A stretch of DNA of 28,098 nt, taken from an uncultured Planctomycetaceae bacterium (lineage in GTDB: Bacteria; Planctomycetota; Phycisphaerae; SM23-33). The translations under genes were made by a program, and so were the position numbers. This document shows, piece by piece, positions 1 to 27,325 of this stretch (the first letter of the stretch is position 1; the number at the start of each line of letters is the position of its first letter). The notes below the pieces were generated by a model. That model was not told the origin of the DNA. It worked only from the letters and a program-made list of their open reading frames with translations, and ran no database searches. Location of the stretch: the NCBI GenBank assembly GCA_964646065.1, contig CAZYDC010000001.1:1-28098 (forward strand), written 5' to 3'.

Positions 1-2010
1 GGCGGCCAGGTGGTCGGGATAGCCGCCGCCGTCCCAACGTTCGTGATGGTTTCGGACGGCGGGCAACTCCCGTTCGAGGAACCGCATCGAGTCCAGGATT
101 CGCACCGCGATCAGCGGGTGCTCTTCCATCACGTGGCGTTCGGCGGACGTGAGCTTGCCGGGCTTGAGCAGGATGGAGTCCGGGATGCCGAGTTTGCCGA
201 TGTCGTGAACCATGGCCGCGACCCGCACGGTCTCGATTTCCAAATCCGACAGCCCCATGACCCTGGCGGTGGCGACGGCGTACCGCAGCACGTTGTCGGA
301 GTGGCTCTTGGTGTAGGCGTCGCGGGCCTCCAGGGCCTCGACCAGCCCGCGCACGCTCTGGAGGAAGAACTCCCTGGACTTGGCCGACAAGACGGCCACC
401 TGATCGTGCAGGGCCTGGAGTTGCGGGGTCTGGGCCTTCGATGGCCCCTGGATACCGCTGGCGGTGACGTTCTCCCACGTCTCGATGCGGTCTCGCCCGA
501 GCTTCTTGGCCCGGTACAAGGCCATGTCGGCCCGTCGGACCAGTTCGTTGGACGTCATGTCGGGCGAGGGGATGAACTCGGCGACGCCGCAACTGAACGA
601 GATCGGGAAGTCCTTGGCCGCGGTCACCGCTTTGACCTTGGTCCGCAGGCGTTCCATGGCACGGACGGCGCCGGCGCAGGTCATCTCGGGCAGCAGCAGG
701 ACAAACTCGTCGCCGCCGTACCGGACCAGGATGTCGGTGGCGCGTTTTTCGGTTTGGAGACAGTGGCTTACCTGGGCCAGCACGCGGTCGCCCACCTGGT
801 GCCCCAGCGTGTCGTTGATCGACTTGAACCGGTCGATGTCCAGCATGGCCACGCAGTAGGTCCGGTGGTAGCGGATGGCGCGGGCAGACTCGGACTCCAG
901 GGCGGTCTCCAGGACTTTCCGCGTGCCCGCACCGGTCAGGGTGTCGGTCAGGAGCAGCGACTTGGTGTCCTGCCAAAGGCGGGCGTGGCTGAGGTTATAG
1001 CTGAGCACTTCACGGGCCAGAGTCGCCTTGTAGTTCAGCACATCGGCGCCGAGGTCTTTGTGGGCAAAGTCGCACAGGCAGAGGTAATTGTTCGATCCGG
1101 CGCGTTTCTTGCCCTCGGAGAACATGGTTACGTTCAGGGGAATGAGGATCCTGGACTGCCCGGCCTTGCACCGCCGGCAGGCGGGGGGGGTCTTGGTCAG
1201 GGACGCCGATCCCAACCGGGCCGCTCGTCGAACATCCCGGCGGGTGTTGACCTCGGCCTCGGGGCACAGGCAGTGATGCCCCTTGATGAGGGTCGTCACG
1301 CCGGCCGCGGACTTTTCACGGTTCCGGGGATGGATATCGGCCCGCGCGTGGGATAAGGCCTCCGAGCCCGTTCCCTCACGACCTTGGATCGCGGTGGAGA
1401 AGAAGGCCAGCGCGCGGGAGGCGGAAAAGATTCGAGGCACCTCACGCAGGATCATGGCTACCACGTCGTCGAAGTCGAGGTTCCTCAGCGAGGTGGAGAG
1501 CATGGCGATCTGCTCGGCGGCCCTCTGTTTGGCCTGGCTGGTTTGCACTTGGTGAGCGATGACATCGCGGCTGGAAATCATGCCCACCGCCCGTCCGGCC
1601 GCGGTGACCGGCAGGTGTCGGATATGGTGGTGGTTCATCAACTCCTCCACCCGCTCCATGGGCGTCCCGACCCGGACGGATATAACATCCGAACTCATGG
1701 CCTGTTGCACCGTTGCCCGGGCTGGGTCCAGTCCCACAGCCAGCACGCGGCTGGCGATGTCGCGTTCGGTGAACACGCCGGCAAGGGCGCCCTTGTCGTC
1801 TGTGACCACCAGGCAGCCTATCTTGGCCGAGGCCAGCGTCTTAGCGGCCTCAACAATGGTGGTGTCGCTTCTAACCGTGATAATGCCCCGGCCAGCTTTG
1901 GACGCTTTCAATGGCTTGTTGCCGACATGCCCGCCGGGCTTTGGGTGTGGAGCGCCGTTGCTTGCGTCCAACCAGTCATTGGCAGGCAACTTGTCTTTAA
2001 TCATGGGCAT
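1..2010 (-). CDS. CBS-pair / Cys-rich GAF-like / GGDEF / HD-GYP protein (diguanylate cyclase-phosphodiesterase); C-terminus runs off the window
   Basis: Translated by hand from ATG at 2010 (alternative 2004), open through position 1, so absent from the ORF track. Tandem CBS motifs (IGCLVVTDDKGALAGVFTERDI; HIRHLPV...VGMISSRDVI), GGDEF with I-site (KRATDILVRYGGDEF, GGDEF at 703-717), HD-GYP motifs (MVHDIGKLGIP; HHERWDGGGYP). Confidence 0.93.
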   Translation of the reverse strand, partial: MPMIKDKLPANDWLDASNGAPHPKPGGHVGNKPLKASKAGRGIITVRSDTTIVEAAKTLASAKIGCLVVTDDKGALAGVFTERDIASRVLAVGLDPARATVQQAMSSDVISVRVGTPMERVEELMNHHHIRHLPVTAAGRAVGMISSRDVIAHQVQTSQAKQRAAEQIAMLSTSLRNLDFDDVVAMILREVPRIFSASRALAFFSTAIQGREGTGSEALSHARADIHPRNREKSAAGVTTLIKGHHCLCPEAEVNTRRDVRRAARLGSASLTKTPPACRRCKAGQSRILIPLNVTMFSEGKKRAGSNNYLCLCDFAHKDLGADVLNYKATLAREVLSYNLSHARLWQDTKSLLLTDTLTGAGTRKVLETALESESARAIRYHRTYCVAMLDIDRFKSINDTLGHQVGDRVLAQVSHCLQTEKRATDILVRYGGDEFVLLLPEMTCAGAVRAMERLRTKVKAVTAAKDFPISFSCGVAEFIPSPDMTSNELVRRADMALYRAKKLGRDRIETWENVTASGIQGPSKAQTPQLQALHDQVAVLSAKSREFFLQSVRGLVEALEARDAYTKSHSDNVLRYAVATARVMGLSDLEIETVRVAAMVHDIGKLGIPDSILLKPGKLTSAERHVMEEHPLIAVRILDSMRFLERELPAVRNHHERWDGGGYPDHLAA

Positions 2011-2265: not shown

Positions 2266-2752
2266 GTGAGCCGAATGGTGACGATGTTGGTGGGGGGGGA
2301 TGATGTTCACGCACGTGAATTCGCGGACCTTTACGCAGGATCGAGACGAAGGCAAGCGATCGCGGGGCGATTTAGGCCTCGGCGCCGACAGGCCCAGGCC
2401 ATTGGACAGACTGCTTACGGAACTCAATCTGACCGAGGACCAGCGGAAGCAGGTCGGGCAGATCGTAGATACACACCGTCAGGCCACGGAGAACCGGCGG
2501 AAAGAGAACCAGGCCACGCTCAGGGACCTCAACAAGCAACTGGATGACGCCACGGAATCCGGCGACAAGGACAAGATCAAGGCGGCCGGCCAAGCCGTCG
2601 AGAAGATCGATCCGTCGCGAAAGGCCGAGCAGGAAAACGTGATCAAGCAACTCAAGGACGTGCTCACGCCCGACCAGTCGGAGAAGGCCAAGAAGTTCAT
2701 GGAAGAACGCGAGCGCCTTGGTGATCGGGGGCCGGGCGAAGCAGGATTGTGA
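2266..2752 (+). CDS. Spy/CpxP-family (LTxxQ) helical periplasmic protein, apparently frameshifted at the G8 tract (2292-2299); intact downstream frame 2300-2752
   Basis: Two LTxxQ motifs (LNLTEDQRKQ, VLTPDQSEK). SD GGAGA at 2256-2260 precedes GTG 2266. Removing one G joins MSRMVTMLVGG to MMFTHVNS..., giving a signal-peptide-like N-terminus. Confidence 0.72.
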
Positions 2753-2762
2753 AGATTGCCGG

Positions 2763-2798
2763 CGGTGGTCGTCGGCGAGAGGTCATATGGGAAATGTC
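2763..2798 (+). promoter_or_regulatory. Conserved 36-bp leader motif, copy A
   Basis: CGGTGGTCGTCGGCGAGAGGTCATATGGGAAATGTC; 31/36 identical to 12773-12808 and 32/36 to the minus-strand copy at 18325-18359. Confidence 0.7.
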
Positions 2799-2856
2799 GG
2801 GTCTTATGATTTGGGTGCGGCGAATTATTTGATATCGCAAGAGCGGACAGCGGACT

Positions 2857-2885
2857 TTGACAAGGAAGGCTATTGGGGATATTAT
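2857..2885 (+). promoter_or_regulatory. Near-consensus sigma70-type promoter for the hydrolase gene
   Basis: TTGACA (2857-2862), 17-nt spacer, TATTAT (2880-2885), about 70 nt upstream of ATG 2958. Confidence 0.65.
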
Positions 2886-2957
2886 GGATTGCCGCAATTT
2901 CCCGGCCTGGGTTGCGTTTGACGTTCAGAAGCAAGAGGAACTTGGGAGACTTCCGCC

Positions 2958-4745
2958 ATGTTTATCGCACAAAGCAAACGTTGGTTGATCCATGCAGTAT
3001 GCCTGGCGGGGATGCTGGCATCCGTCGGGCGCGTCTGCGCCGAGGAGGGCCCGGCATCGGCTGCTTCCGCAAGCACGCCGTCAACGGCGCCGGCCTCCGC
3101 CCCTGACGAGCGAGTCAAGCCGGGCGCAACGTTCTTCCTGGAATTTCCCAATTTGCCCAAGACCCGCCACGGCAAACTCACCACGATGCAGGTCTGCATT
3201 CCCAGGCAGTACGACCCGCGCAAGCTGTATCCACTTTATGCGTTCATGGGAGGGTCGGACGGCACATCCACCGTTGAGACCGACCTGGTGAACGACGACC
3301 GGTACGTCCGGATTGCGCTGCCGTTTCCCAAGGGCTCGAACAGTCCATATTGGGAAGGCATGATAGGCAAGTTCCCAATGGTCTGGCAATATCACAAGGC
3401 CATGTTGGACGAACTGTTCAAGGTGGTTCCGAACATCAGCCCGAGCCTGCGAATCATCGCCGGTTTCAGCAACGGCGGACACACCCTGGCCGGCTTGATG
3501 CAGTTGCCCAAGAGCGACTTCCTGGATTACTTCAACGTGTACATTCCCGTTGAAGGGGGCGGCATCGGCCCCTGGTGGTGGAGCGGCGCCAAGGGTTCCG
3601 GCTTGGACGTTCGTTTGAGAGGCCGCTACGCCTGCCTGCTCTGGGGCGAAAAGAGCATCGGCAAGGGCCAGGTCAAGCCGATGTCCGAGAAATTGGAAAG
3701 ATTCGGCGTGAAGGTGACCACCTTCGCGATGGAAGACACGGGGCACGACTTCCCGGCGGCGTATCAGGACAAGGTTCGCGATTGGATCAAGGGGCAGGCT
3801 GTTCCGGGGATGATCGCCGAGGCGATGGCGGTGGTGGAAAAGGCCCAGGGCGGCCCGGCCGCCGGAAAGGCCTACGGCCTTGCCAAGAGCCTGGAGCTCG
3901 CCGCCCAAAACGACAAGGACGCCGAGCGGATCCGAAAGCAGTTGGCCCGTCTGGAGGAGATCGCCGACAAGCGGTACGCGGACCTCAAGGCAACGGTCAA
4001 CGAAACTGGCGCGGTCTCAAAGACGCCCGCCAGCGTTCTGTCCAATCTGAAGTCGCTTATGAAGGAGTTCAACGGTTGCAAGGCATCGGACCAGTGCCGT
4101 GAGCTTTTGGGGCGGCTTGGCGGGCCTGAACTGGACAAGATCAAAGCCGGCTTGGCGAGAGAGATGACGGCCGATCAGCGTCTCGCGCTGGCGGCCAAAC
4201 TCAGACAGTTTGCCAAGGACTGGGAAGGCACCGCGCCCGCGGACCAATGCAACCAGGTCCTTCAGGGTGTCTCGGAGCAGGCGTTTGAAGGCCTCAAGGC
4301 CGACATTCCGGACAGCGCCGACGAGGCCGCTCGCCAAAAAGCCGTGCCGGAACTAAGGAAGTTCCTGGGCTCCTGGGAAGGAACGTCCGGCGCGACCAAA
4401 GCCAAGGCGATCCTGGACTCCATTGCCGCCAAAGCGCTTGATAAGATTAAGTCCGCCTCCAGCGGCAAGCTCACCGCGCCGCAGCGCGATGCTCTGGCCG
4501 CAAAGATCATCAAGTTTCAGGCCGAGTGGAAGGACACCCAGGCCGCCGGCGACGCGCAGGCGCTGCTGGACGACTTTTCGCAGCAGGAGCTCGACGAGTT
4601 CAAGGGAACGTGGCCCGCTTCGCCGACCCAGGCCCAAAAACAGGCGATCGTCGCCCAGCTCAAGAAACTTCAGGCTAAGTGGCAAGGCAGCTCAGCGGCG
4701 GACCTGTGCGACGATGAGATCAGGAAATTGGGCAATCCCAGGTAA
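2958..4745 (+). CDS. Secreted alpha/beta-hydrolase (esterase-like) with C-terminal 51-aa helical repeats
   Basis: Signal peptide (..GRVCA/EEG), nucleophile elbow GFSNGG (3462-3479), candidate catalytic His in DTGHDFP (3744), SD GGGAGA upstream. Confidence 0.8.
   Translation: MFIAQSKRWLIHAVCLAGMLASVGRVCAEEGPASAASASTPSTAPASAPDERVKPGATFFLEFPNLPKTRHGKLTTMQVCIPRQYDPRKLYPLYAFMGGSDGTSTVETDLVNDDRYVRIALPFPKGSNSPYWEGMIGKFPMVWQYHKAMLDELFKVVPNISPSLRIIAGFSNGGHTLAGLMQLPKSDFLDYFNVYIPVEGGGIGPWWWSGAKGSGLDVRLRGRYACLLWGEKSIGKGQVKPMSEKLERFGVKVTTFAMEDTGHDFPAAYQDKVRDWIKGQAVPGMIAEAMAVVEKAQGGPAAGKAYGLAKSLELAAQNDKDAERIRKQLARLEEIADKRYADLKATVNETGAVSKTPASVLSNLKSLMKEFNGCKASDQCRELLGRLGGPELDKIKAGLAREMTADQRLALAAKLRQFAKDWEGTAPADQCNQVLQGVSEQAFEGLKADIPDSADEAARQKAVPELRKFLGSWEGTSGATKAKAILDSIAAKALDKIKSASSGKLTAPQRDALAAKIIKFQAEWKDTQAAGDAQALLDDFSQQELDEFKGTWPASPTQAQKQAIVAQLKKLQAKWQGSSAADLCDDEIRKLGNPR
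4080..4742 (+). repeat. Four complete 51-aa (153-bp) degenerate helical repeats plus a partial fifth
   Basis: Units start KASDQC, APADQC, SGATKA, QAAGDA, SAADLC, and each complete unit ends W-x-[GD]-[TS]; the period is exactly 51 residues. Confidence 0.85.
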
Positions 4746-6133: not shown

Positions 6134-6260
6134 ATTCCCCGGAAAACTGTGGATATTTTCCTTGATCGTCTCTCCGGGCAAGGGCAACATGACCGTTGGT
6201 TTCAGGTCGCGTAGCCTGATAAAGGGCCAGGTCGGGCAAGGACTCGTTCCATCCGGCCCC
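6134..6260 (+). ncRNA. Unassigned promoter plus structured 5' leader element, copy 1 (upstream of HU)
   Basis: Aligns end to end with 26059-26186. Contains TTGATC-17-CAACAT, hairpin TCAGG/CCTGA (6202-6219), and stem GGGCC/GGCCC (6224-6259) enclosing the invariant CAGGTCGGGCAAGGACTCGTTCC. Confidence 0.6.
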
Positions 6261-6304: not shown

Positions 6305-6613
6305 ATGGCAAAGGCACTGACGAAGTCGGAAATCGTTGCAAAATTGGCCGAGTGTGGCGAACTTCAGAAGAAACAGGTCGCGTGCGTGCTGGAAGGCCTT
6401 GGCTGCCTGATCAAGGCGGCCTTGGGCAAGAAAGGTCCGGGCTTGTTCGTGGTGCCCGGCCTGATGAAGATCACCGTCGTTCAGAAGCCGGCGGTTCCCG
6501 CCCACAAGGGAATCAACCCCTTCACGAAGGAACAGCAGATGTTCAAGGCGAAACCCGCCCGAAAAGTCGTCAAGGTCCGCCCGCTGAAGGCCCTCAAGGA
6601 CATGGCGAAGTAA
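6305..6613 (+). CDS. hup: HU-family histone-like DNA-binding protein
   Basis: SD GAAGGAG; MAKALTKSEIVAKLAE...FVVPGLMKITVVQKPAVPAHKGINPFTKE...KVVKVRPLKALKD matches the HU/IHF fold pattern. Confidence 0.92.
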   Translation: MAKALTKSEIVAKLAECGELQKKQVACVLEGLGCLIKAALGKKGPGLFVVPGLMKITVVQKPAVPAHKGINPFTKEQQMFKAKPARKVVKVRPLKALKDMAK

Positions 6614-12663: not shown

Positions 12664-12772
12664 AGATGCTCTAACTCAAATCCTCCAGTGCCATCCTTTG
12701 CGGAATCGCTGAGGACATGGGCGAAACATGTAATATCACGCCCAAGTCCGGTAGAATCGTGCACAACGTCGA

Positions 12773-12808
12773 CGGTGGTCGGCAACGAGAGTTTATATGG
12801 GAAATGTC
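12773..12808 (+). promoter_or_regulatory. Conserved 36-bp leader motif, copy B
   Basis: CGGTGGTCGGCAACGAGAGTTTATATGGGAAATGTC; TAGAAT (12752-12757) lies 15 nt upstream. Confidence 0.7.
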
Positions 12809-12841
12809 AGTTCGGAGTTCCGGCCATCGGAGACCCAGAAG

Positions 12842-15800
12842 ATGAAACGACAAACGAACAACTACGTGCGGGGAATCGCGGGAATACTTCTGGCGTTGGC
12901 TACGATTGGAGGATGCGCCCCGGAACCGAAGTGCTTTGAAGTGGACGACGTTTTTCTGGCGCACGCGCCGACATTTGAACCGGGCCGGTTCGGTCAGGCG
13001 GTGCGCGATCCGCTGGCGGGACACGGCGGCCTGTTCTTGTGGTATCCCAGCGTCCTGCCGGAAGAAGGAACTTTTTCCGGGTGGGTCAAACCGGAGGCCG
13101 GGCTGGGATGGGGGCCGCTGTTTCCGCATATTCAGACGGACACGGCGCTGGGCGGGAAACCGGATTACGGGTTGGAGGTCAATCCCGACTGGCTGGGGCT
13201 GGCGATTCAGGGCCAGCGGCCGGACAAGCTCACGACGGACGCCCAAGAGCGATTCGGAGTCGGCCGGCATTTGAAGATTCGCCAGTGGAACCACATCGCG
13301 GCAACCTTCGGGCCACAGGAGACGAAGGTGTACGTCAACGGGGAACTGGCCGCGACAGGTCCGGGTATTGCGCTGCGGGGCAACCCGGGGCGCGACTACC
13401 TGAGCCTGGTGACGGACCTCATGCAGATCCATGCCCCGGGGCTCCTGGACGAATTCATCCTGTTCAACCGGGTGCTGCCGGCCCAAGAGGTTCAGGCACT
13501 GTACAGGCGAACCGAGCCCTACCCGGAAGGACAGGACACGGTGGCCATCTGGCGGTTCGACGGCGACACACGAATGCGATTGCCCAAACAGGCAAGGGCA
13601 ACCGGCGGCTCGCTGTTCTACCGCACTGGCAGTGCGTACAGCCTCTTCCGCGACGAGCGGGGGGTGGCGATCAAGATGAATGTCATCAACTGGAACGCCC
13701 AGCCGGTGGAATGGACGGTGAGGCTCAAGGTGGACGACATGCACCGCAACCGGGTGTATGACAAGACCCTCCCGGTCAGTCTTGCCGCCCGCAGCCAGAA
13801 GCAGTGGTCGCAGAAGTTCGAGGGATTGGCCAACGGCATGTTCTATGGCACGTTCGAGCTGGCGGCCAAAGACGGAACGGTGCTGGACCGGCGGGGCTCG
13901 ATCTTCGGCAAGACGCTGGCGCCGGACCGGATGAAGATTACCCAGGACGCGCGGTTCCAGGTCGGGGCCGAGGCCGCCACGTACTGCAACTGGCCGGACA
14001 ACGGCATGACGTTCACGCTGATGCGCCAGTCCAACTGGGCCGACGTCGAACCGGAACAAGGAAAATGGTCTTGGGCCATCCTGGACGCCTTTGTGAAACA
14101 AGCGAGGGCGGAAAACATTCACTTTGTCTTCGGATCGGCGAGCTGTCCGCTCTGGGCGGTGAAGGAAGGCGCCACATGGGCATCGGGTAATTGGGAGATG
14201 GTCCCCCAAAACCCCCAGGGCTTTTCGACCTACGTGGAGGCGCTGGCCCGTCGTTACAAGGGGCAGGTCGAAACCTTCGAGGTGTGCAACGAGCCGGGCT
14301 ACCTGACGCCGACGGAATACGCCGACTTTGTCGCTCGGGCCAAGCGGGCGATACAAACGGCGGGCGCGGACATCAAGGTGATCGCCGGTTTCCATTCCAG
14401 TCAGCAATGGCTGGACCAGATGGTCGTAAAGACCAAAGGCTCGATGGATATCCTCAGCACGCACCCCTACTGCTGCCTGACCCTGGAAAATGAAAAGGAC
14501 GTCTATCCCACCTACCTGAAAATGCTGCCACACGTGCGATCTCTGGGCATGACCGGCCCGTGGTGGGCCACCGAGGTAGGCAACTGGGGCGGCCACTTGC
14601 GGGCCGACGGCTATCCGATGACGCGGGAGGACGAACGGCGGTTCCGCGGCGAAACGCCGGCGCGGCGAGAACAGTCGCTGGAGTATTTCAATTCGCAGGA
14701 AGACCTGGCCAACATGGCCGTCCGGTCCATGCTGGTGAGTTTTGCCTCCGGAGTGGAACGGTACAGTTGGCATTACTACAGGGCGTTGAGTTCGTGCGAC
14801 TGCATCGCCGACTACCACCTGCTGGCGTTCGGGAACGTCGTTGGGCTGCTGACCGGAGGCGAGTTCGTCCGGCAACTGGACCTGGGCGGCGACGACCTGT
14901 GGGCCTTCCAATTCCGCAACAAGGGCCGGACGATCATCGCGTATTGGCAGGCGGCCAAGGCCCCCGCGCCCCGCAAGGCGCACTTCAAGGTGAACACGGC
15001 GACGTATGCCCTGACCGACATCTACGGCAACAGCAAGGAATACAAGAGTCAGGAGGGTCTGGCCGAGGTGGAAGTGACCTCGGTGCCGCAATTCCTGCGG
15101 ACATCGGACACAGACATAACGGTGATCGAACCGGTGCTGGCGCTGCGCGGCGACGCGGTGATTATGCCCGGACAGGAGAGCAAAATTACGGCGACCATCC
15201 GCGATCCGCTGTCCAAAACGATAACGGGCAAGCTGACGTTGCATGCTCCGGCCGGTGTCACGCTGGCGCCCGCGGATTTCACGTTCGAGGCCGGGCCCGG
15301 CGAGGAAAGGAGCCTTCAGAGCACTCTGCTCGTTCCGCCAGGCCTGGGACTGATGGACAGGCAGATCCGTGCGGAAATCCAGACGGACCGCCTCGGTTCG
15401 CTGGAGCGGACGCTTGCGATGAACGTGCGGCAGTCCACCACGTGCGCGAAGCTGAACAAGGAAATCCGGATCGACGGAGACCTGGGCAAATGGGCGGATG
15501 TCCCGGCGATCCATCTGGACCGCAAGAGCCAGGTGATCGCCGGATCGGTGCGCCCCGAAGGAGACCCCAACCCGACGATGCTCTATGAGTGGGACGGGCC
15601 CCAAGACCTCAGCGGGATAGTCAGGACGGCATGGGATCCAACGAATCTGTACATGAGCGTCAAGGTGCGAAAAAAAGGCCGGATTCTGAACACGCCGCGC
15701 CAGCAACGGAGCACGGCGCTGTACGAGGGCGACTGCGTCGAGCTGTTCCTGGATTTTGAGCCCAGGGAAGGCAAAGGTTATGGGCCCAATACATGGCAAA

Positions 15801-16135
15801 TCTTCCTTGTACCGCCGACCGAGGATCACCCGACGGCCACTTGCAACGTGTTCCAGCCGGCGGCGAGGCAACTGGCGGGCATCGAGCTCGTGGGCAAGGT
15901 CGTGGAAGGCGGGTATGTGATCGAGGCGAAAATTCCGTGGTCGAACTTCGCGCCCTTTGCGCATGAGGCGGGTAAGGTTATCGGGTTCGACGTGGCCATT
16001 GACGACCAGGATAGCCCGGTCGAACAGGTTTACTCCGACGGCAAGGGGTTCCGCAAATGCCAGATCGGCTGGGGAGAAAACAAGAATTTCTCTGGAGACC
16101 GGAGCCAGTTCGGCCGGATGGTTCTTGGAAAGTAA
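12842..16135 (+). CDS. Multidomain lipoprotein glycoside hydrolase: LamG-like, GH39-like clan GH-A barrel, NEW3-like, CBM9-like
   Basis: Lipobox IGG-C; LamG motif WNHIAATF..KVYVNGEL..LDEFILFNRVL; acid/base VCNEP (14288-14296); nucleophile WATE (14573); CBM9-like IDGDLGKW..DLSGIVRTAWDPTNLY..GDCVELFLD..IEAKIPW..GFDVAIDDQD. Confidence 0.85.
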   Translation: MKRQTNNYVRGIAGILLALATIGGCAPEPKCFEVDDVFLAHAPTFEPGRFGQAVRDPLAGHGGLFLWYPSVLPEEGTFSGWVKPEAGLGWGPLFPHIQTDTALGGKPDYGLEVNPDWLGLAIQGQRPDKLTTDAQERFGVGRHLKIRQWNHIAATFGPQETKVYVNGELAATGPGIALRGNPGRDYLSLVTDLMQIHAPGLLDEFILFNRVLPAQEVQALYRRTEPYPEGQDTVAIWRFDGDTRMRLPKQARATGGSLFYRTGSAYSLFRDERGVAIKMNVINWNAQPVEWTVRLKVDDMHRNRVYDKTLPVSLAARSQKQWSQKFEGLANGMFYGTFELAAKDGTVLDRRGSIFGKTLAPDRMKITQDARFQVGAEAATYCNWPDNGMTFTLMRQSNWADVEPEQGKWSWAILDAFVKQARAENIHFVFGSASCPLWAVKEGATWASGNWEMVPQNPQGFSTYVEALARRYKGQVETFEVCNEPGYLTPTEYADFVARAKRAIQTAGADIKVIAGFHSSQQWLDQMVVKTKGSMDILSTHPYCCLTLENEKDVYPTYLKMLPHVRSLGMTGPWWATEVGNWGGHLRADGYPMTREDERRFRGETPARREQSLEYFNSQEDLANMAVRSMLVSFASGVERYSWHYYRALSSCDCIADYHLLAFGNVVGLLTGGEFVRQLDLGGDDLWAFQFRNKGRTIIAYWQAAKAPAPRKAHFKVNTATYALTDIYGNSKEYKSQEGLAEVEVTSVPQFLRTSDTDITVIEPVLALRGDAVIMPGQESKITATIRDPLSKTITGKLTLHAPAGVTLAPADFTFEAGPGEERSLQSTLLVPPGLGLMDRQIRAEIQTDRLGSLERTLAMNVRQSTTCAKLNKEIRIDGDLGKWADVPAIHLDRKSQVIAGSVRPEGDPNPTMLYEWDGPQDLSGIVRTAWDPTNLYMSVKVRKKGRILNTPRQQRSTALYEGDCVELFLDFEPREGKGYGPNTWQIFLVPPTEDHPTATCNVFQPAARQLAGIELVGKVVEGGYVIEAKIPWSNFAPFAHEAGKVIGFDVAIDDQDSPVEQVYSDGKGFRKCQIGWGENKNFSGDRSQFGRMVLGK

Positions 16136-16402
16136 CTGGACGGGCATAACGTATGAAGGAGCCTCGCCGGCCCTTACCGTATGTGAATACCACCCCCGGC
16201 AAGTTCTCCGCCAACGACGACAAGGGCAGGTATCCTGAACACGTGAGATATGAATACCACGTTTGGGTCTATGAGACTGTTGGCCATCACCGTTGCAGGG
16301 CTGGCCGTGTGGGTTGGAATAGCGGTAGCCACGCGTCAAGGTGAGGCAGGTTGGCTGCCAACAAGGCAATGGACGAAACACATAATGTCCCGGGCTCGCC
16401 AG

Positions 16403-16600
16403 CTATCTAAGTTCCCGTAGGGCTTCGGCAAGCTCCATCAGGTCCAGAGGCTTGCCCACCCGCTTCGAGGCCGCAGATATTCCCCACCATCCTGCCGCAG
16501 GCAAGGGTGTTAATCGGGATTTTCCGAATGGCGTCTCGCGGACGGCCATCGCCATCGGTCTCCATCATTTTACTTTGAATTTGCCACGTCCATGCTTTCC
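16403..16600 (-). pseudogene. Degenerate response-regulator receiver-domain C-terminal fragment
   Basis: Across frameshifts it reads RKIPINTLACGRMVGNICGLEAG and KPLDLMELAEALRELR*, resembling receiver IPIIALTA..M.GD...LEAG...KP.D...L. Confidence 0.45.
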
Positions 16601-16632: not shown

Positions 16633-18306
16633 TCACGGCTGTGCGGGTTTGCCGGTGGCGGCTGGGGCGGTGTAGGGCTTGCCCTGGTCGTCCACGGGGG
16701 TGGCCTGCGTGTTGTCGATGTTGTAGTTGTTGCGGCAGATCACCGACGACTGGACCTGCTGGGTCGAGCCGACCACAATGCCGCGATGATTGCCGCTGTC
16801 GAACACCACGTTGTCGATGATCTGCGAGCCCTCCTCGCCGCAAAGGCGAATGCCCGTGCTGGGGATGCGATTCTTTCCGTCGCTGCTGTAGGGCCGCACG
16901 ACGTTGCCCGAGATCACGAAGTTCTTGAGCGAATGCACTTCTTTGGCGTTGCCGCCCGAAAAGAGGTTGATGCCCTCCGGCGTGGGCGTCGTGCAACCGT
17001 ACTGCACGCCGTAGGAGAACCCGCCGGTGGCCGTGTCGGCCACGTCGCTCTTGCCGTCTTTGAGGGTCGAGTACGTGAAGGTCGTGCGGCTGGGCGTGGA
17101 GGTGACGTACACAACCTGGTCGTTCTTAATCGACCCGCCCGTGATCTTCATGCTGCGGAAGCCGATCTGCTTGCCGGGGGTCAGGCTGTACGGGATGTCG
17201 GTCGTGACCACGCCTTTCTCGATCTTGACCACGTCGTACCCGTCGTGGAGCTGGATGATGTTCCCGCGGATCTGGAAGTTGGACAGGTCCCAGGTGTCGG
17301 CCGCCAGGAAGATCGCCTGGTTCACGTCGCAGAAGATATTGTTCTGGTAGATGTGGTCGCGCAGCGGCCAGGTGTCCGTGTATATGGCGCAGCCCATGAA
17401 GTGCTCGAAGTAGTTATCCTCGACGAGGCAACCCTGGCAGCCGGACATGGTGATGCCGTGGCAGCCGAAGTGGTGGCCGAGAAAGTGGTTTCTTCGCATC
17501 ACGGCCCCGCGCGACCAATGGGGCACGTTGATGTCGCTCTTGCCGGGCCCGCCGGAGATGGTGGCGACCGAGCAGCCGGTCGGCTGGAGCAGCGATTGAC
17601 CGGTGAAGACGCAATCCTCGATGATCAGGTTGGTGGCGTCGGTCTCCATGCTGCCGAAGAGAGCGACGGCGAAGTTCTCGCCGGTCTCGTCGTCGTAGGT
17701 GCTGCCGTAGTTGGACACCATGCACCGCCTCACGGCGCAGTTGCTGCCCATCAAATGGATGGCGGCCGCGTTGGACTTGATGACGCCGTTCACCTTACGC
17801 TGGTTCTGGTACCCGCAGTCGATGGAGAGGTCGTCGATCTCGATGCCGCCGTCATTGCCCTCGAAGACGGTCGCGTGGGACTGGCCGGAGTTGTCCTGGA
17901 TGATCTTCGTGACCTCCATGCCGGCTCCGTGGATCTTGGTGTTGGCCTTGACGGTGAAGACGGCCGTTCCGCGCGTGTGGAACGTGCCGGGGCCGAGGTG
18001 GACGGCGCCCGCGGGCTTGATCGCCGCAAAGGCCGCGTCGAACTTGGCGGCCGTCGAAACGTCCAACGGGTCCGTCGCCGTGCCCTTGCCCGCCTGCCCA
18101 TCTGTGCGAAAGGCCAGGTACACCTCCGACGGGACCATGGATATGGAGGTGGACGCCGTGACGTTTGGGTGGCCGGGGCTGGGCGTCAAAGACACATCAC
18201 CCTTTCTTTGGTCCGGCCGCCCCCGGCTGACTTCCGCCCCAACATTGGTGCATCCTGTGGAGGTGAATAATCCGACGGCCGTCAACATCAATGCAAAGTA
18301 TTTCAT
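16633..18306 (-). CDS. Lipoprotein with right-handed parallel beta-helix (pectin-lyase-like fold), possible polysaccharide lyase/hydrolase
   Basis: ATG 18306, lipobox STG-C; VHLGPGTF..IHGAGMEVTKI start motif and Asn-rich periodic strands (VEDNYFEH, YQNNIFCD, IRGNIIQ, ISGNVVR, ICRNNYN). Confidence 0.8.
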   Translation of the reverse strand: MKYFALMLTAVGLFTSTGCTNVGAEVSRGRPDQRKGDVSLTPSPGHPNVTASTSISMVPSEVYLAFRTDGQAGKGTATDPLDVSTAAKFDAAFAAIKPAGAVHLGPGTFHTRGTAVFTVKANTKIHGAGMEVTKIIQDNSGQSHATVFEGNDGGIEIDDLSIDCGYQNQRKVNGVIKSNAAAIHLMGSNCAVRRCMVSNYGSTYDDETGENFAVALFGSMETDATNLIIEDCVFTGQSLLQPTGCSVATISGGPGKSDINVPHWSRGAVMRRNHFLGHHFGCHGITMSGCQGCLVEDNYFEHFMGCAIYTDTWPLRDHIYQNNIFCDVNQAIFLAADTWDLSNFQIRGNIIQLHDGYDVVKIEKGVVTTDIPYSLTPGKQIGFRSMKITGGSIKNDQVVYVTSTPSRTTFTYSTLKDGKSDVADTATGGFSYGVQYGCTTPTPEGINLFSGGNAKEVHSLKNFVISGNVVRPYSSDGKNRIPSTGIRLCGEEGSQIIDNVVFDSGNHRGIVVGSTQQVQSSVICRNNYNIDNTQATPVDDQGKPYTAPAATGKPAQP

Positions 18307-18324
18307 TGGATCGCCTTTATCCGG

Positions 18325-18402
18325 GACTTTCCCGGATGACCTCTCGCTGACGACCACCGCCAGCAGTCTGTGTGATCTTACTTAGTTTTGGCGTTTCGAC
18401 AA
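18325..18402 (-). promoter_or_regulatory. sigma70-type promoter followed by the 36-bp leader motif, copy C
   Basis: Minus strand: TTGTCG (18397-18402), 16 nt, TAAGAT (18375-18380), 15 nt, CGGTGGTCGTCAGCGAGAGGTCATCCGGGAAAGTC (18359-18325). Confidence 0.7.
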
Positions 18403-18515
18403 GACAATCCCAGGCCGGCGGCAATGCCACATAGTGCCAACAGCAACAGCATCGAACCGATCGGTCGTCTCATATACTGCTCTCCGGCTCGGTGGGGCCT
18501 TGGGCGCGCCGCGTA

Positions 18516-26058: not shown

Positions 26059-26186
26059 ATACCCCTGGAGAACGGTGGATATTTCCTCTGATCACCCCTC
26101 TGGACAAGGGCAATATGACCATCTGTTTCAGGTCGTGTGGCCTGATAAGGGGTCAGGTCGGGCAAGGACTCGTTCCCTATGACCCT
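26059..26186 (+). ncRNA. Unassigned promoter plus structured 5' leader element, copy 2 (upstream of GH16)
   Basis: CTGATC-17-CAATAT, hairpin TCAGG/CCTGA (26128-26145), stem GGGTCA/TGACCC (26150-26185) around the same invariant 23-mer (26154-26176). Confidence 0.6.
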
Positions 26187-26285
26187 GTCCAATGGGCGCC
26201 GGGCAATCCTCGGCCGATTCTGATCCGCGACATTCGGAAGCCTTTCGTAACAGTGGAGGACATCCGGGCGTGCCTGCGAGGACTT

Positions 26286-26310
26286 GGCTGCTGCTGACAG
26301 CAGCCCATTT
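26286..26310 (+). terminator. Possible attenuator/terminator hairpin in the GH16 leader
   Basis: Perfect 8-bp stem GGCTGCTG/CAGCAGCC, loop CTGA, but only a short CATTT tail. Confidence 0.35.
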
Positions 26311-26344
26311 ACAAGGTAGACTCATGTCTTCACAGGAGATCGTC

Positions 26345-27325
26345 ATGAATGTATCGAGAATAGCTGCGACAACATTGCCCCTGGGGGCGATCATCGCCGT
26401 CTGTTTCATCTCTTACCAGCCATCCTATGCGCAGGAAAAACCTTTGGATCATCCCATCGCTGCATCGCGGCCGGCTGAGTTGGCCCCGGTCAGCAATAGT
26501 CGTCCCGCCGCGGAACGTAAAGGCTGGCAGTTGGTCTGGTCGGACGAGTTCGACAACGAAGGCCTGCCCGACCCGAAGAAGTGGACCTACGAGGTTGGTT
26601 TCGTCCGCAATCAGGAGAAGCAGTACTACACGCAGGCTCGCAAGGAGAACGCCCGAGTGGAGCATGGCGTGCTGATCATCGAAGGCCGCAAGGAGCATTT
26701 CCCCAACGCCCAACATGATCCCAAGGCCAAGGACAACTGGCAGAAAGATCGCCCGAACGCGGATTACACGTCGTCGAGCATTACCACCGAAGGCAAGGCC
26801 TCGTGGACGTACGGCCGGATCGAGGTTCGGGCCAAGCTGCCGCAAGGCAAGGGTGTCTGGCCGGCGATCTGGACGCTGGGCACCAGCCGTTCGAAGATCG
26901 GCTGGCCACGGTGCGGGGAGATTGACATCATGGAGTTCGTCGGTCACACGCCGGACAAAGTGCATGGCACCGTACACTATGGACCGGACGGCAAGCACCT
27001 CAGCCAGGGCGACAAACTCACGATGGACAGGCCTTGGGAGGACTTCCACGTGTACGCCGTCGAGTGGGAGGCGGACCGGATCGAGTTCTACTTCGACGAC
27101 ACGAAGTACTTCACGTTCAAGACGGCGGCCGCCGATTCCGCCGGTTCCAACGCCTTCCGCCAGCCGCATTACCTGCTGCTGAACATGGCCTTGGGCGGCA
27201 GTTGGGGCGGCCATATCGACGACAGCATCCTTCCGCAGCGATTCGTGATCGATTACGTCCGGGTCTACCAGCGGCCTGGGAGCACTACGAAATCACAGCC
27301 TGTATTGGATTCGGGTCATCGTTAG
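26345..27325 (+). CDS. Secreted GH16 laminarinase/beta-glucanase-like protein
   Basis: SD AGGAG before ATG 26345, signal peptide (..PSYA/QEK), WSDEF, YGRIEVRAKLP, WPAIW and catalytic EIDIME (26918-26935). Confidence 0.93.
   Translation: MNVSRIAATTLPLGAIIAVCFISYQPSYAQEKPLDHPIAASRPAELAPVSNSRPAAERKGWQLVWSDEFDNEGLPDPKKWTYEVGFVRNQEKQYYTQARKENARVEHGVLIIEGRKEHFPNAQHDPKAKDNWQKDRPNADYTSSSITTEGKASWTYGRIEVRAKLPQGKGVWPAIWTLGTSRSKIGWPRCGEIDIMEFVGHTPDKVHGTVHYGPDGKHLSQGDKLTMDRPWEDFHVYAVEWEADRIEFYFDDTKYFTFKTAAADSAGSNAFRQPHYLLLNMALGGSWGGHIDDSILPQRFVIDYVRVYQRPGSTTKSQPVLDSGHR

Follow-up and report, generated by a model that had tools for sequence, protein, structure and literature searches.

The window analysed here is the whole 28,098-nt stretch of contig CAZYDC010000001.1, from an uncultured member of the Planctomycetaceae. 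It contains four copies, called A to D in the following, of a short element that is preceded in each case by a -10-like hexamer. The element has two hairpins, P1 and P2, and two covariance models, R1 and R2, were used to search for it, the alignment of R2 including copy D. The copies, their parts and the genes that accompany them are as follows.

2742..2747, + strand: -10-like hexamer CAGGAT of copy A, 3/6 to TATAAT, 8 nt before the element
2756..2804, + strand: leader element, copy A, 67.4 bits and E = 6e-21 with R1, also placed by alignments and fold
2757-2764, 2765-2769 and 2770-2777, + strand: 5' arm, loop GUGGU and 3' arm of P1 in copy A
2778-2786, + strand: linker AGAGGUCAU of copy A
2787-2800, + strand: P2 of copy A, weak (AUGGG/GUCGG)
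2857..2885, + strand: near-consensus sigma-70 promoter, TTGACA-17-TATTAT (11/12), between copy A and the start codon at 2958
2958..4745, + strand: gene downstream of copy A, 595-aa exported protein with the signal peptide MFIAQSKRWLIHAVCLAGMLASVGRVCA
12752..12757, + strand: -10 box TAGAAT of copy B (5/6), 8 nt before the element
12766..12814, + strand: leader element, copy B, 56.5 bits with R1
12842..16135, + strand: gene downstream of copy B, 1097-aa lipoprotein with Laminin_G_3, GH42/GH10-like and CBM9 domains
16510..16558, - strand: copy D, a diverged orphan element with loop AUGGC and linker GAGACGCCAU
16567..16572, - strand: -10 box TAAAAT of copy D (5/6), 8 nt before the element
16633..18306, - strand: gene downstream of copy C, 557-aa lipoprotein whose homologues have Beta_helix/NosD Pfam matches
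18317..18366, - strand: leader element, copy C, 65.3 bits with R1, fold z = -3.45
18375..18380, - strand: -10-like hexamer TAAGAT of copy C (4/6), with a -35 hexamer TTGTCG 16 nt upstream

Copies A, B and C had been reported in a preliminary description of this DNA as a 36-bp motif. Direct reading of the window finds all three where they were placed, with 31/36 identities to copy A for copy B and 32/36, with one gap, for copy C, as described. The consensus with up to three mismatches matches exactly these three sites, and 100 shuffles give no match. Together with covariance-model E-values of 1e-17 to 1e-23 for the canonical copies, this puts the number of copies in the window far above the chance expectation. 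The motif is thus real, but its extent had been set too short and one copy had been missed. The conserved unit (2756-2804, 12766-12814 and 18366-18317) is an element of 49 nt that starts 7 nt upstream of the reported motif, and in the alignment profile the information content is high at model positions 2-45 and zero beyond. The fourth copy, D, at 16558-16510 on the minus strand, is diverged; it scores 33.1 bits (E = 3e-9) with R1 and 56.4 bits with R2, the latter score not being independent because the training alignment of R2 included copy D. Searching with R2 gave no copies beyond those already found. The 36-bp motif is the core of a putative two-hairpin RNA leader of about 50 nt that lies directly after a predicted promoter.

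Copies A to C are intergenic and co-oriented with genes that encode a signal peptide or a lipobox (translations judged by eye), in agreement with the preliminary description. The start codon follows 10 nt after the element at copy C, where the TAAGAT hexamer also overlaps the stop codon of a 31-codon ORF. The 595-aa protein downstream of copy A gave no match in a Pfam search. Copy D sits just past the stop of the beta-helix gene and is aimed into the 3' end of a convergent GH gene, with no convincing ORF downstream of it.

We now consider the sequence in front of the element. Exactly 15 nt separate each of the hexamers CAGGAT (2742-2747), TAGAAT (12752-12757) and TAAGAT (18380-18375) from CGGTGG, as had been noted. 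CAGGAT is a poor -10 box. Over the whole family, 19 of the 25 copies are preceded by a TAnAAT hexamer (at least 4/6) at a distance of exactly 8 or 9 nt, which supports the earlier suggestion of a promoter-proximal, transcribed leader. Often, TTGTCG or TTGACG stands 16 nt upstream of TAnAAT, and the 8 bases of the spacer vary. A strict promoter scan called no promoter at copies B, C and D (8/12 or less). With the box ending 8-9 nt before the element, 0-4 unpaired nucleotides are predicted at the 5' end. The promoter at 2857-2885 is confirmed, and it may be the one that drives the gene downstream of copy A at present. Copy A, with its poor -10 box and this separate strong promoter downstream, is a weak case for the promoter reading. 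In a subset of the copies the conservation reaches 75-190 nt upstream of the promoter.

The order of the parts is a TAnAAT box, an 8-nt spacer, the 8-bp hairpin P1 with loop GUGGU, the linker AGAGGUCAU, and the short hairpin P2, which displays GGGAAAU. In single-sequence folds P1 and P2 form and the linker is unpaired; the pairing of P2 is only 75-81%. Copy C has P1 UGCUGGCG/CGUCAGCG around GUGGU, the linker AGAGGUCAU, and P2 AUCCGGG-AAAGU-CCCGGAU. Copy B has two mismatches in P1 in the standard register, and its single-sequence fold retains a 5' hairpin of 6 bp with the register shifted (GUCGAC-GGUG-GUCGGC). The 3-bp TCG-N4-CGA tetraloop hairpin that had been proposed does not stand, as its N4 turns out to be part of P1: these bases are the 3' arm, and the 5' arm lies upstream of the reported start. 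It should be noted that the canonical copies were retrieved by a pattern that fixes GGTGGTCG, CGAGAG and GGGAA, and the invariance of these three strings is therefore partly by construction.

In the canonical copies, the linker AGAGGUCAUC is complementary at 8/10 positions to GAUCACCUCC, the 16S 3' tail presumed for this lineage. The downstream genes have GGAG/GAGG boxes of their own ahead of their start codons, which indicates that the lineage uses Shine-Dalgarno pairing. A GAGG-like linker is absent in 6 of the 9 copies that were found by the covariance model only, and this weakens the ribosome-binding part of the model presented below. The start codon follows the element at a variable distance, between about 10 and about 155 nt. 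We also considered a leader peptide or start codon within the motif and rejected it: copies A and B and the copy of a named Planctomycetota MAG (L004) contain an AUG at ...CAUAUGGG, and most copies have CAUCCGGG. As the AUG is not conserved, the 44-aa JGI gene call at the position of copy A is probably spurious.

Pattern and covariance-model searches yielded 25 copies in about 320 kb, made up of the window and the retrieved loci; four of the copies are in this contig and 21 in other DNA. Gene contexts were determined by hand and from Pfam matches. Among the genome representatives there was one true match, in the MAG just mentioned, besides three chance matches in coding DNA; the true one lies at position 5-35 of an 8-kb genome slice. 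The 25 metagenome matches comprise true copies on 11 contigs, one of which duplicates another, and one second source-sequence copy, the others being coincidences in coding sequences. No match to the element was found in the scan of viral contigs. The contigs with canonical copies have a G+C content of 0.54 to 0.69, to which the MAG is added. They are otherwise dissimilar to the window DNA, so that several organisms keep nearly identical 45 nt in front of unrelated genes.

For about 21 of the 25 copies, the start of a co-oriented gene lies no more than about 200 nt ahead; no co-oriented gene follows copy D of the window or the copy at 6240 of contig L009. The downstream genes encode GH2, GH20, GH51, GH95-like and GH116 enzymes, SASA esterases, a beta-helix protein, a peptidase and an oxidoreductase. 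They are thus mostly glycan-degrading enzymes, mostly in single genes of 1-3 kb, and the Pfam families bear out the earlier idea that the motif marks a set of polysaccharide-degrading enzyme genes. The general link to secretion that had been drawn as well has to be given up, since about 5 of 13 downstream proteins (GH2, GH51, GH116, GH95-like and GNAT) have no signal peptide; the association is with glycan breakdown.

An orthologue of the beta-helix gene with 85% identity (contig L032) has the element in the same place, with a compensated change of C-G to U-A and an AGGAG linker. Six further contigs with orthologues or homologues (L034 to L039) have no copy, and at the homologues of gene B (63-64% identity) and of gene C (52-68%) the element is missing or only a weak copy is present, which points to a fast turnover. 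Tandem or partly duplicated copies also occur, at 67 and 119 in L009 and, with a doubled P2, in L016.

The evidence that the element is read as RNA comes mainly from P1, whose 5' arm was absent from every search pattern. It is paired in 94% of the cells in an alignment of 16 sequences and in 90.5% with 24 sequences, compared to 31-49% for slid controls. Three to four of the 8 pairs show changes on both sides, and none of 500 shuffles reached the observed covariation score. The exchanges are C-G/U-A, G-C/C-G and G-U/A-U, and some of them are seen between copies in this contig. For example, pair 5 is C-G in copy A and U-A in copy C. Such compensated differences within one contig argue against a single dimeric DNA-binding protein that reads fixed half-sites. 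Furthermore, there are 27 G-U pairs in P1 against 9 A-C mismatches, which indicates the sense strand. That the N4 covaries with bases upstream of the reported motif thus speaks for an RNA hairpin on the sense strand rather than for a protein operator. Since the copies are paralogues of one another, few of the compensatory events can be counted as independent.

The reading that we prefer, to which we assign a probability of roughly 45%, is that the element is a functional cis-acting 5' leader RNA. A sigma-70-type promoter (TTGnCG, 16-17 nt, TAnAAT) would set the start of transcription about 0-4 nt before P1. The transcript would then begin with P1 and its GUGGU loop, continue with the purine-rich, unpaired and Shine-Dalgarno-like linker AGAGGUCAUC, and end the element with P2 presenting GGGAAAU. 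It would act as RNA and in cis, at the mRNA 5' ends of dispersed genes for glycan-degrading enzymes. A post-transcriptional action is the most likely one on the present evidence: the leader would either stabilise the mRNA or offer the ribosome or a regulator a platform for binding. In the mechanism that we consider most plausible, the 5'-terminal hairpin would shield the mRNA from 5'-end-dependent RNases, assisted by a 30S subunit or a dedicated protein that is bound to the conserved unpaired bases, and the shielding would give a common high or co-regulated level of expression. That the element is specifically an mRNA stabiliser is a tentative proposal. A plain stabiliser hairpin needs no invariant loop, and this counts against it.

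The invariant bases lead directly to the alternative that survives best, namely that they are a signal to a factor in trans. We regard it as doubtful that the element is the tag of a post-transcriptional regulon, in which one RNA-binding factor or ligand would read GUGGU, AGAGGUCAU and GGGAAAU at the 5' ends of dozens of mRNAs. A related version, in which a trans-acting RNA-binding regulator or a small RNA reads the loop, the linker and the GGGAAAU on P2 and switches the whole enzyme set on or off, with stabilisation being secondary, is unlikely. Candidates would be a CsrA-like protein or an antitermination factor of the lambda nut or LoaP kind. Loop and linker do stay invariant in organisms that range from 54 to 69% G+C, with covarying stems; a common functional theme links the genes downstream, and the duplicated copies in L009 and L016, as well as the orphan ones, could serve as decoys. 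The arrangement of hairpin, linear box and hairpin after a promoter also recalls nut and other loading sites for antiterminators. However, the proteins encoded in the window include no candidate factor, and a binding site would not need a strictly 5'-terminal position. Leaders bound by CsrA have two or more GGA motifs in hairpin loops, one of which overlaps the SD of the gene. Here each element has a single motif of the GGA type, the GGGAAA at the stem-loop junction of P2, and further GGA near the Shine-Dalgarno sequence is present in some leaders (L016, L031) inconsistently. Most targets are single genes of 1-3 kb and the leaders have no predicted terminators, which leaves little for processive antitermination to act on. 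If the reading as a regulon tag were true, dispersed glycan-degrading enzymes in Planctomycetota would be coordinated, and the orphan copies would be antisense promoters or decoys.

The next alternative places the function in the DNA. The stretch from +2 to +46 would be an operator or promoter-proximal site that binds a repressor or influences promoter escape or pausing, and it would be recognised either in double-stranded form or as the non-template strand. The fixed distance to the -10 box fits this, P1 and P2 are both inverted repeats like many operators, and the conserved 75-190 nt upstream of the promoter in a subset could hold further protein sites. We nevertheless judge it quite unlikely. 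The half-sites differ between copies of the same contig with complementarity kept, G-U pairs exceed A-C mismatches in P1 by 27 to 9, and P2 variants such as CCGGG/GUCGG break the DNA palindrome yet retain the RNA pairing. An asymmetric footprint of 45 bp would also be unusually long for a single factor.

Slightly less credit still is given to a mobile promoter repeat, that is, a cassette that spreads by duplication or recombination and is kept for its promoter, the leader having no specific regulatory role. Near-identical segments do stand before non-homologous genes within and across genomes, which is how such promoters are defined (PMC3575422). The tandem and partial duplications, the orphan or decaying copies (A and D of the window, and L009 at 6240) and the orthologous positions without the element in more distant relatives point in the same direction. 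Against this, the conservation is strongest in the transcribed 45 nt and not in the promoter hexamers, compensatory changes maintain the pairing of P1, the copies are oriented towards gene starts, and the viral contigs have no matches. Random placement or the target-site duplications of a MITE had been named beforehand as signs that would speak against a functional motif, and the outcome of this check does not count against the finding. The copies show neither terminal inverted repeats nor target-site duplications, and no sharp boundary on the left; unlike in MITE or REP-type elements, which insert in either orientation relative to genes, the conservation is asymmetric and the termini are not repeated.

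A small riboswitch or another ligand or temperature sensor in the 5' UTR has a very low probability. The RNA is a compact two-hairpin structure with invariant loop and junction bases before metabolic genes, and pairing of the loop GUGGUC with GGUCAU of the linker is sequence-compatible in 93.5% of the cells, which hints at an alternative conformer. This helix was examined and rejected, as it has no two-sided changes and is equalled by shuffles. On geometric grounds it excludes a simultaneous P1, because P1 has 8 bp and the connector only 3-4 nt. There is moreover no expression platform, with no terminator-like sites in the four window leaders and a variable distance to the start codon; the downstream enzymes have unrelated substrates, and no Rfam family matches the motif even at E up to 10.

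Finally, the suggestion of an ops-like loading site for RfaH or a NusG paralogue, made from the likeness of GGCGGTGG to GGCGGTAG, is largely refuted and the least probable of all: the GGCGGT that opens copies A and C equals the first six ops bases, but the GC of GGCGG belongs to variable stem bases of P1 (GACGG, CGCGG, GATGG, TGCGG) that covary with their partners, a 21-nt hairpin exceeds what a transcription bubble can expose, and the targets are mostly single genes rather than long operons.

Planctomycetota have very large sets of carbohydrate-active enzymes (CAZymes), and to our knowledge their CAZyme gene clusters have not been functionally characterised. A near-invariant cassette on many such genes in several uncultured lineages is a concrete and testable handle on their regulation. 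It provides a search model for predicting co-expressed enzymes in metagenome bins, a candidate expression part for planctomycete engineering, and a clean example of a regulatory RNA propagated along with its promoter. Should it prove to be a stabilising leader and nothing more, it would add modestly to a known class.

The family is absent from Rfam and from the papers searched, in line with the earlier description of the motif as unassigned. The whole window has no match in Rfam 15 at gathering thresholds, and around copy A, with E up to 10, there are two chance-level matches (E of about 7-8) that do not overlap the motif. A literal search of the paper library for motif strings gave primer noise only, CGAGAGGTCAT being in none of the papers, and nothing relevant was found in the literature on promoters, leaders and RNA motifs of Planctomycetes. 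The closest candidate by lineage is the Rhodopirellula-1 motif, a candidate cis-regulatory hairpin of Planctomycetes (Weinberg et al. 2010, supplement of PMC2864571), which is listed without an Rfam accession in the motif table of that paper. An identity with it was rejected on the description and the example sequence given there: Rhodopirellula-1 is a long, bulged hairpin whose terminal loop varies and whose foot has conserved bases, in contrast to the 8-bp P1 with its fixed 5-nt loop, and its sequences (e.g. AACCAGGCGAUGAACUGG...) are unrelated to the present leader.

With the RfaH ops element (GGCGGTAGnnTG), the family shares the leader location and, in two of the four window copies, six identical starting bases. 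Copies A and C match 7/12 positions of the consensus, which is not kept family-wide: the first five positions vary because they are stem bases of P1. The planctomycete element is moreover, in the reading preferred here, an RNA hairpin, whereas ops is an element of the non-template DNA. Ops lies in the leaders of long multi-gene operons (capsule, LPS, pili, toxins); downstream of the present family are mostly single enzyme genes, with the two copies that have no co-oriented gene. The DNA at hand from the source organism, 28 kb and about 8 kb of flank, encodes no specialised NusG paralogue. Promoter-proximal antiterminator RNAs, such as the nut sites of phage lambda (boxA/boxB), put and the LoaP leader hairpins, are similar in having a short hairpin and a linear box soon after the promoter; the differences are that the present family has no sequence match to them, no long operons or internal terminators to overcome, and no candidate partner protein encoded in the window.

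Putative mobile promoters (Nijveen, Matus-Garcia & van Passel 2012, PMC3575422) are similar promoter segments that occur before non-homologous genes and between genomes and may carry RNA motifs. The four copies in this contig and the 21 others, before unrelated Pfam families at 54-69% G+C, agree with that description. It is however a descriptive class with no mechanism, whereas here the conservation peaks in the leader and is accompanied by structural covariation.

The leader of B. subtilis aprE and the STAB-SD of B. thuringiensis cryIIIA (Hambraeus et al. 2000, 2002; Agaisse & Lereclus 1996, as cited in PMC7509114 and PMC11805744) are a close comparison. Their mRNAs begin with a hairpin, behind which comes a Shine-Dalgarno-like stretch distinct from the site of initiation, an arrangement that is predicted for the planctomycete leader too, and they precede genes for abundant, often secreted, degradative proteins. 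Their stabilising action would, by analogy, be shared by the planctomycete element. On the other hand, these are single-gene Firmicutes leaders with no sequence similarity to the present one, which consists of near-invariant 45 nt, including an invariant loop, that are reused before many unrelated genes, and several of its diverged copies have no SD-like box. The 5' stem-loop of E. coli ompA (Emory, Bouvet & Belasco 1992, as cited in PMC7509114) has very few unpaired 5' nucleotides, as predicted for the present element, a geometry that protects from 5'-end-dependent decay. The ompA hairpin acts regardless of its sequence, while the loop and linker of the planctomycete leader are strongly conserved, and this difference implies an additional, specific partner.

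The element is promoter-linked, strand-specific and structurally constrained, and it is conserved across organisms before unrelated genes that share one functional theme. The preliminary description had reported three 36-bp sites in the window, and their sequences indeed read as described, with each of the hexamers CAGGAT, TAGAAT and TAAGAT ending 15 nt before CGGTGG. With up to 3 mismatches, the consensus has exactly three matches in the 28,098-base window, namely these sites, and none in 100 dinucleotide-preserving shuffles of it. A repeat finder independently returned the A-B pair (61 nt, 75%) and the A-C pair (42 nt, 88%). When all copies are anchored on the element, the conserved unit is found to be 49 nt long, beginning 7 nt before the reported motif; the information content is high at positions 2-45 and essentially nil beyond position 46, and the -10 hexamer shows up as a second, lower peak. 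A covariance model (R1), built from 16 copies, yielded a fourth window copy (D; 33 bits, E ~3e-9) with a TAAAAT box exactly 8 nt upstream. The copies in the window are:

Copy A, 2756-2804 (+), before gene A, an exported 595-aa protein
Copy B, 12766-12814 (+), before gene B, a Laminin_G/GH42-like/CBM9 lipoprotein
Copy C, 18366-18317 (-), before gene C, a beta-helix lipoprotein
Copy D, 16558-16510 (-), just past the stop of the beta-helix gene and facing the 3' end of a convergent glycoside hydrolase gene; no convincing ORF was found after it

The separate promoter proposed downstream of copy A (2857-2885) is present, scoring 11/12, and with its degenerate -10 box and this strong promoter further downstream, copy A may be a decaying copy. 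It is preceded by a gene for an LTXXQ periplasmic protein (2300-2752), upstream of which, and divergent from it, lies a gene for a 751-aa CBS-GGDEF-HD-GYP-type protein of cyclic-di-GMP signalling (window 1-2005 (-); 7450-9705 in L005, the same sequence in its own numbering). At copy C, the TAA stop of a 31-codon ORF (MRRPIGSMLLLLALCGIAAGLGLSCRNAKTK, 18473-18378 (-)) overlaps the -10-like hexamer; this ORF resembles a bare lipoprotein signal peptide and could be a small protein or the remnant of a gene truncated on arrival of the cassette.

Among 185,579 species-representative genomes, a 20-base pattern had one true match, in a Planctomycetota MAG (L004), besides three coding-sequence coincidences. 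In metagenomes, 13 true copies were recovered from 11 contigs, of which L029 duplicates L017; L030 is the source sequence itself from another sample; the source sequence is also found on a 78.6-kb JGI contig. Diverged copies were added by covariance models, such as six in 12.4 kb at locus L009, including a tandem pair, which brings the total to 25 copies in ~320 kb, and a second, broader model found no further copies there. Canonical copies lie on contigs of 54-69% G+C in which no other DNA similarity to the window was found, so that several different organisms keep almost identical 45 nt, in copies ascertained by a pattern fixing 19 bases. Homologues of the window proteins are labelled Planctomycetota bacterium. 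An 85%-identical beta-helix gene keeps the element at the orthologous position (37 bits), with a C-G to U-A compensated change; its loop reads ACGGU and its linker AGGAGAUCAU. In a homologue at 68% the copy is weak, and none was found at the orthologous positions in homologues at 52-68% to gene C or at 63-64% to gene B. To judge from this presence across contigs and patchiness at orthologous positions, the element is widespread in one part of the phylum, but quickly gained and lost at individual genes.

In 19 of the 25 copies, the unit is separated from an upstream TAnAAT-like hexamer (at least 4 of 6 bases) by 8 nt, occasionally 9 nt, often with TTGTCG or TTGACG 16 nt further upstream; the eight bases between hexamer and unit are variable. 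A strict promoter scan called no promoter at window copies B, C and D. The promoter reading is based on TAnAAT being conserved at a constant distance throughout the family. In a subset of copies (L004, L008, L012, L016 (7430), L018 and L019, and partly at window 12690-12765 and 18367-18440) the similarity extends a further 75-190 nt upstream of the promoter (example ...CTTCGATGCTGTCCGGAGGGCTTCCGCAAGGGCTTGGGACGCCGGGAATCCGCTTGTCGAAGCGCC...), with a compensated hairpin (GGACAG/CTGTCC vs GGCAG/CTGCC vs AACGGA/TCCGTT). This stretch may serve as an upstream control region or belong to a larger repeat.

The RNA of the unit consists of the following parts:

P1, an 8-bp helix, most often CGCUGGCG/CGUCAGCG, with the invariant loop GUGGU
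Linker, AGAGGUCAU, between P1 and P2
P2, a 4-7 bp helix, most often CCGGG/CCCGG, with loop AAAU, carrying the conserved GGGAAAU
3' end, a few unconserved bases after P2

RNAalifold predicts P1 on its own. In an unbiased MAFFT alignment 94% of its cells are paired, against only 31-46% for slid controls, and the covariation score was reached by 0 of 500 shuffles; three of the eight pairs are changed on both sides, and four of eight are compensated in the 24-sequence model alignment (90.5% paired), the number of independent events being small among paralogous copies. The compensated differences within one contig (pair 5 is C-G in copy A and U-A in copy C) and the excess of G-U pairs (27) over A-C mismatches (9) point to a sense-strand RNA hairpin rather than a palindromic protein operator. 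The "N4" of the motif, previously taken for a tetraloop, turned out to be positions 3-6 of the P1 3' arm, whose partners lie upstream of the motif and in none of the search patterns. Pairing in P2 is less consistent (75-81%). Folded singly, most copies form P1 and P2 with the linker unpaired, and copy B retains the 5' hairpin in a shifted register. At L009 67-167 two complete units stand in tandem, 52 nt apart, the first with linker CCACAGUCCAU, and both L016 copies (around 7375-7340 and 3357-3322) have a second GAUGGGAAAUGUCG half-unit after P2.

For about 21 of the 25 copies, a start codon in the same orientation follows at no more than some 200 nt, and in many the gene's own GGAG/GAGG box directly follows P2. 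Outside the window, the genes encode:

Two SASA carbohydrate esterases
GH20, GH2, GH51 arabinofuranosidase, GH116 and a GH95-like fucosidase N-terminus
A TAT-signal GFO/IDH/MocA oxidoreductase
A peptidase S41
Two GNAT acetyltransferases
Two uncharacterised exported proteins, paralogues of each other

The proposed link to secreted enzymes holds for glycan-enzyme genes, and the products of genes A, B and C in the window are exported or lipoproteins, but a link to secretion is not general: about 5 of 13 downstream proteins have no signal peptide, which makes glycan breakdown, not export, the common theme. Other CAZyme genes of the window (two GH42-like, GH16) are without the element. Two copies are orphans, D and that of L009 at 6240: directed into the 3' ends of convergent genes, they differ in their linkers from the other copies, and have good -10 boxes and no ORF following (window 16136-16560 (-); L009 6240-6350 (+)), and would, if active, yield antisense or small RNAs. 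At L031 (~1138-1050 (-)) the downstream gene opens with a clear signal peptide (MKKILVATLMLLGGGVCRA...), is interrupted by a stop 28 codons later and resumes in a different frame, probably a sequencing frameshift. A JGI 44-aa gene (window 2787-2921, L005 10488-10622) starts at an ATG inside copy A (CAUAUGGGAAAUG), and the deposited gene B at its in-motif ATG (1112 aa vs 1097 aa); since most family members lack this ATG, both starts are probably annotation artefacts.

A second intergenic repeat (~115-123 nt, 81-83% identity) occurs in the window on the plus strand, at 6137-6259 before an HU-like gene (about 6306-6613) and at 26063-26185 before the GH16 gene (26192-27325). It has no Rfam match and was not found in the other fetched loci; its consensus folds into three hairpins with one compensated pair, and it may represent a further shared leader or a small RNA.

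Our main reading, to which we give a probability of about 0.45, is that the element is a functional cis-acting 5' leader RNA, which would protect and tune these mRNAs. Because transcription is expected to start 5-9 nt after the -10 box, P1 would sit at the very start of the transcript, preceded by 0-4 unpaired nucleotides. Its neighbour, the linker (AGAGGUCAUC), could pair at 8 of 10 positions with the conserved 16S 3' tail GAUCACCUCC, and loop and linker together might be a docking site for the 30S subunit or a dedicated protein. Among specific mechanisms stabilisation is the favoured one, though with a clearly lower probability than the general claim. Its main rival is a dedicated regulator reading the invariant loop and linker, because the invariance of the loop exceeds the needs of a plain stabiliser and the SD-like box is lost in 6 of the 9 copies that covariance models alone detected. 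Progressively less likely are a DNA operator; a function-less mobile promoter, which fits the family's agreement with the descriptive definition of promoter reuse (PMC3575422), although the transposon-like termini of a mobile, MITE-type element were not seen; a riboswitch, for which no expression platform was detected; and the ops site earlier noted as a resemblance, whose consensus is not conserved across copies.

[quoted passage not shown] The Rfam search gave no matching family, as the initial description of the motif as unassigned would have it. Rhodopirellula-1, the only Planctomycetes-associated orphan motif without an Rfam accession in Weinberg et al., was rejected, the motif there being unlike the element. 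Since none of Rfam, Rhodopirellula-1, ops, riboswitch and transposon fits, we assign the element to no named family and file it as an undescribed family within a known kind, the promoter-proximal cis-acting leader RNA.
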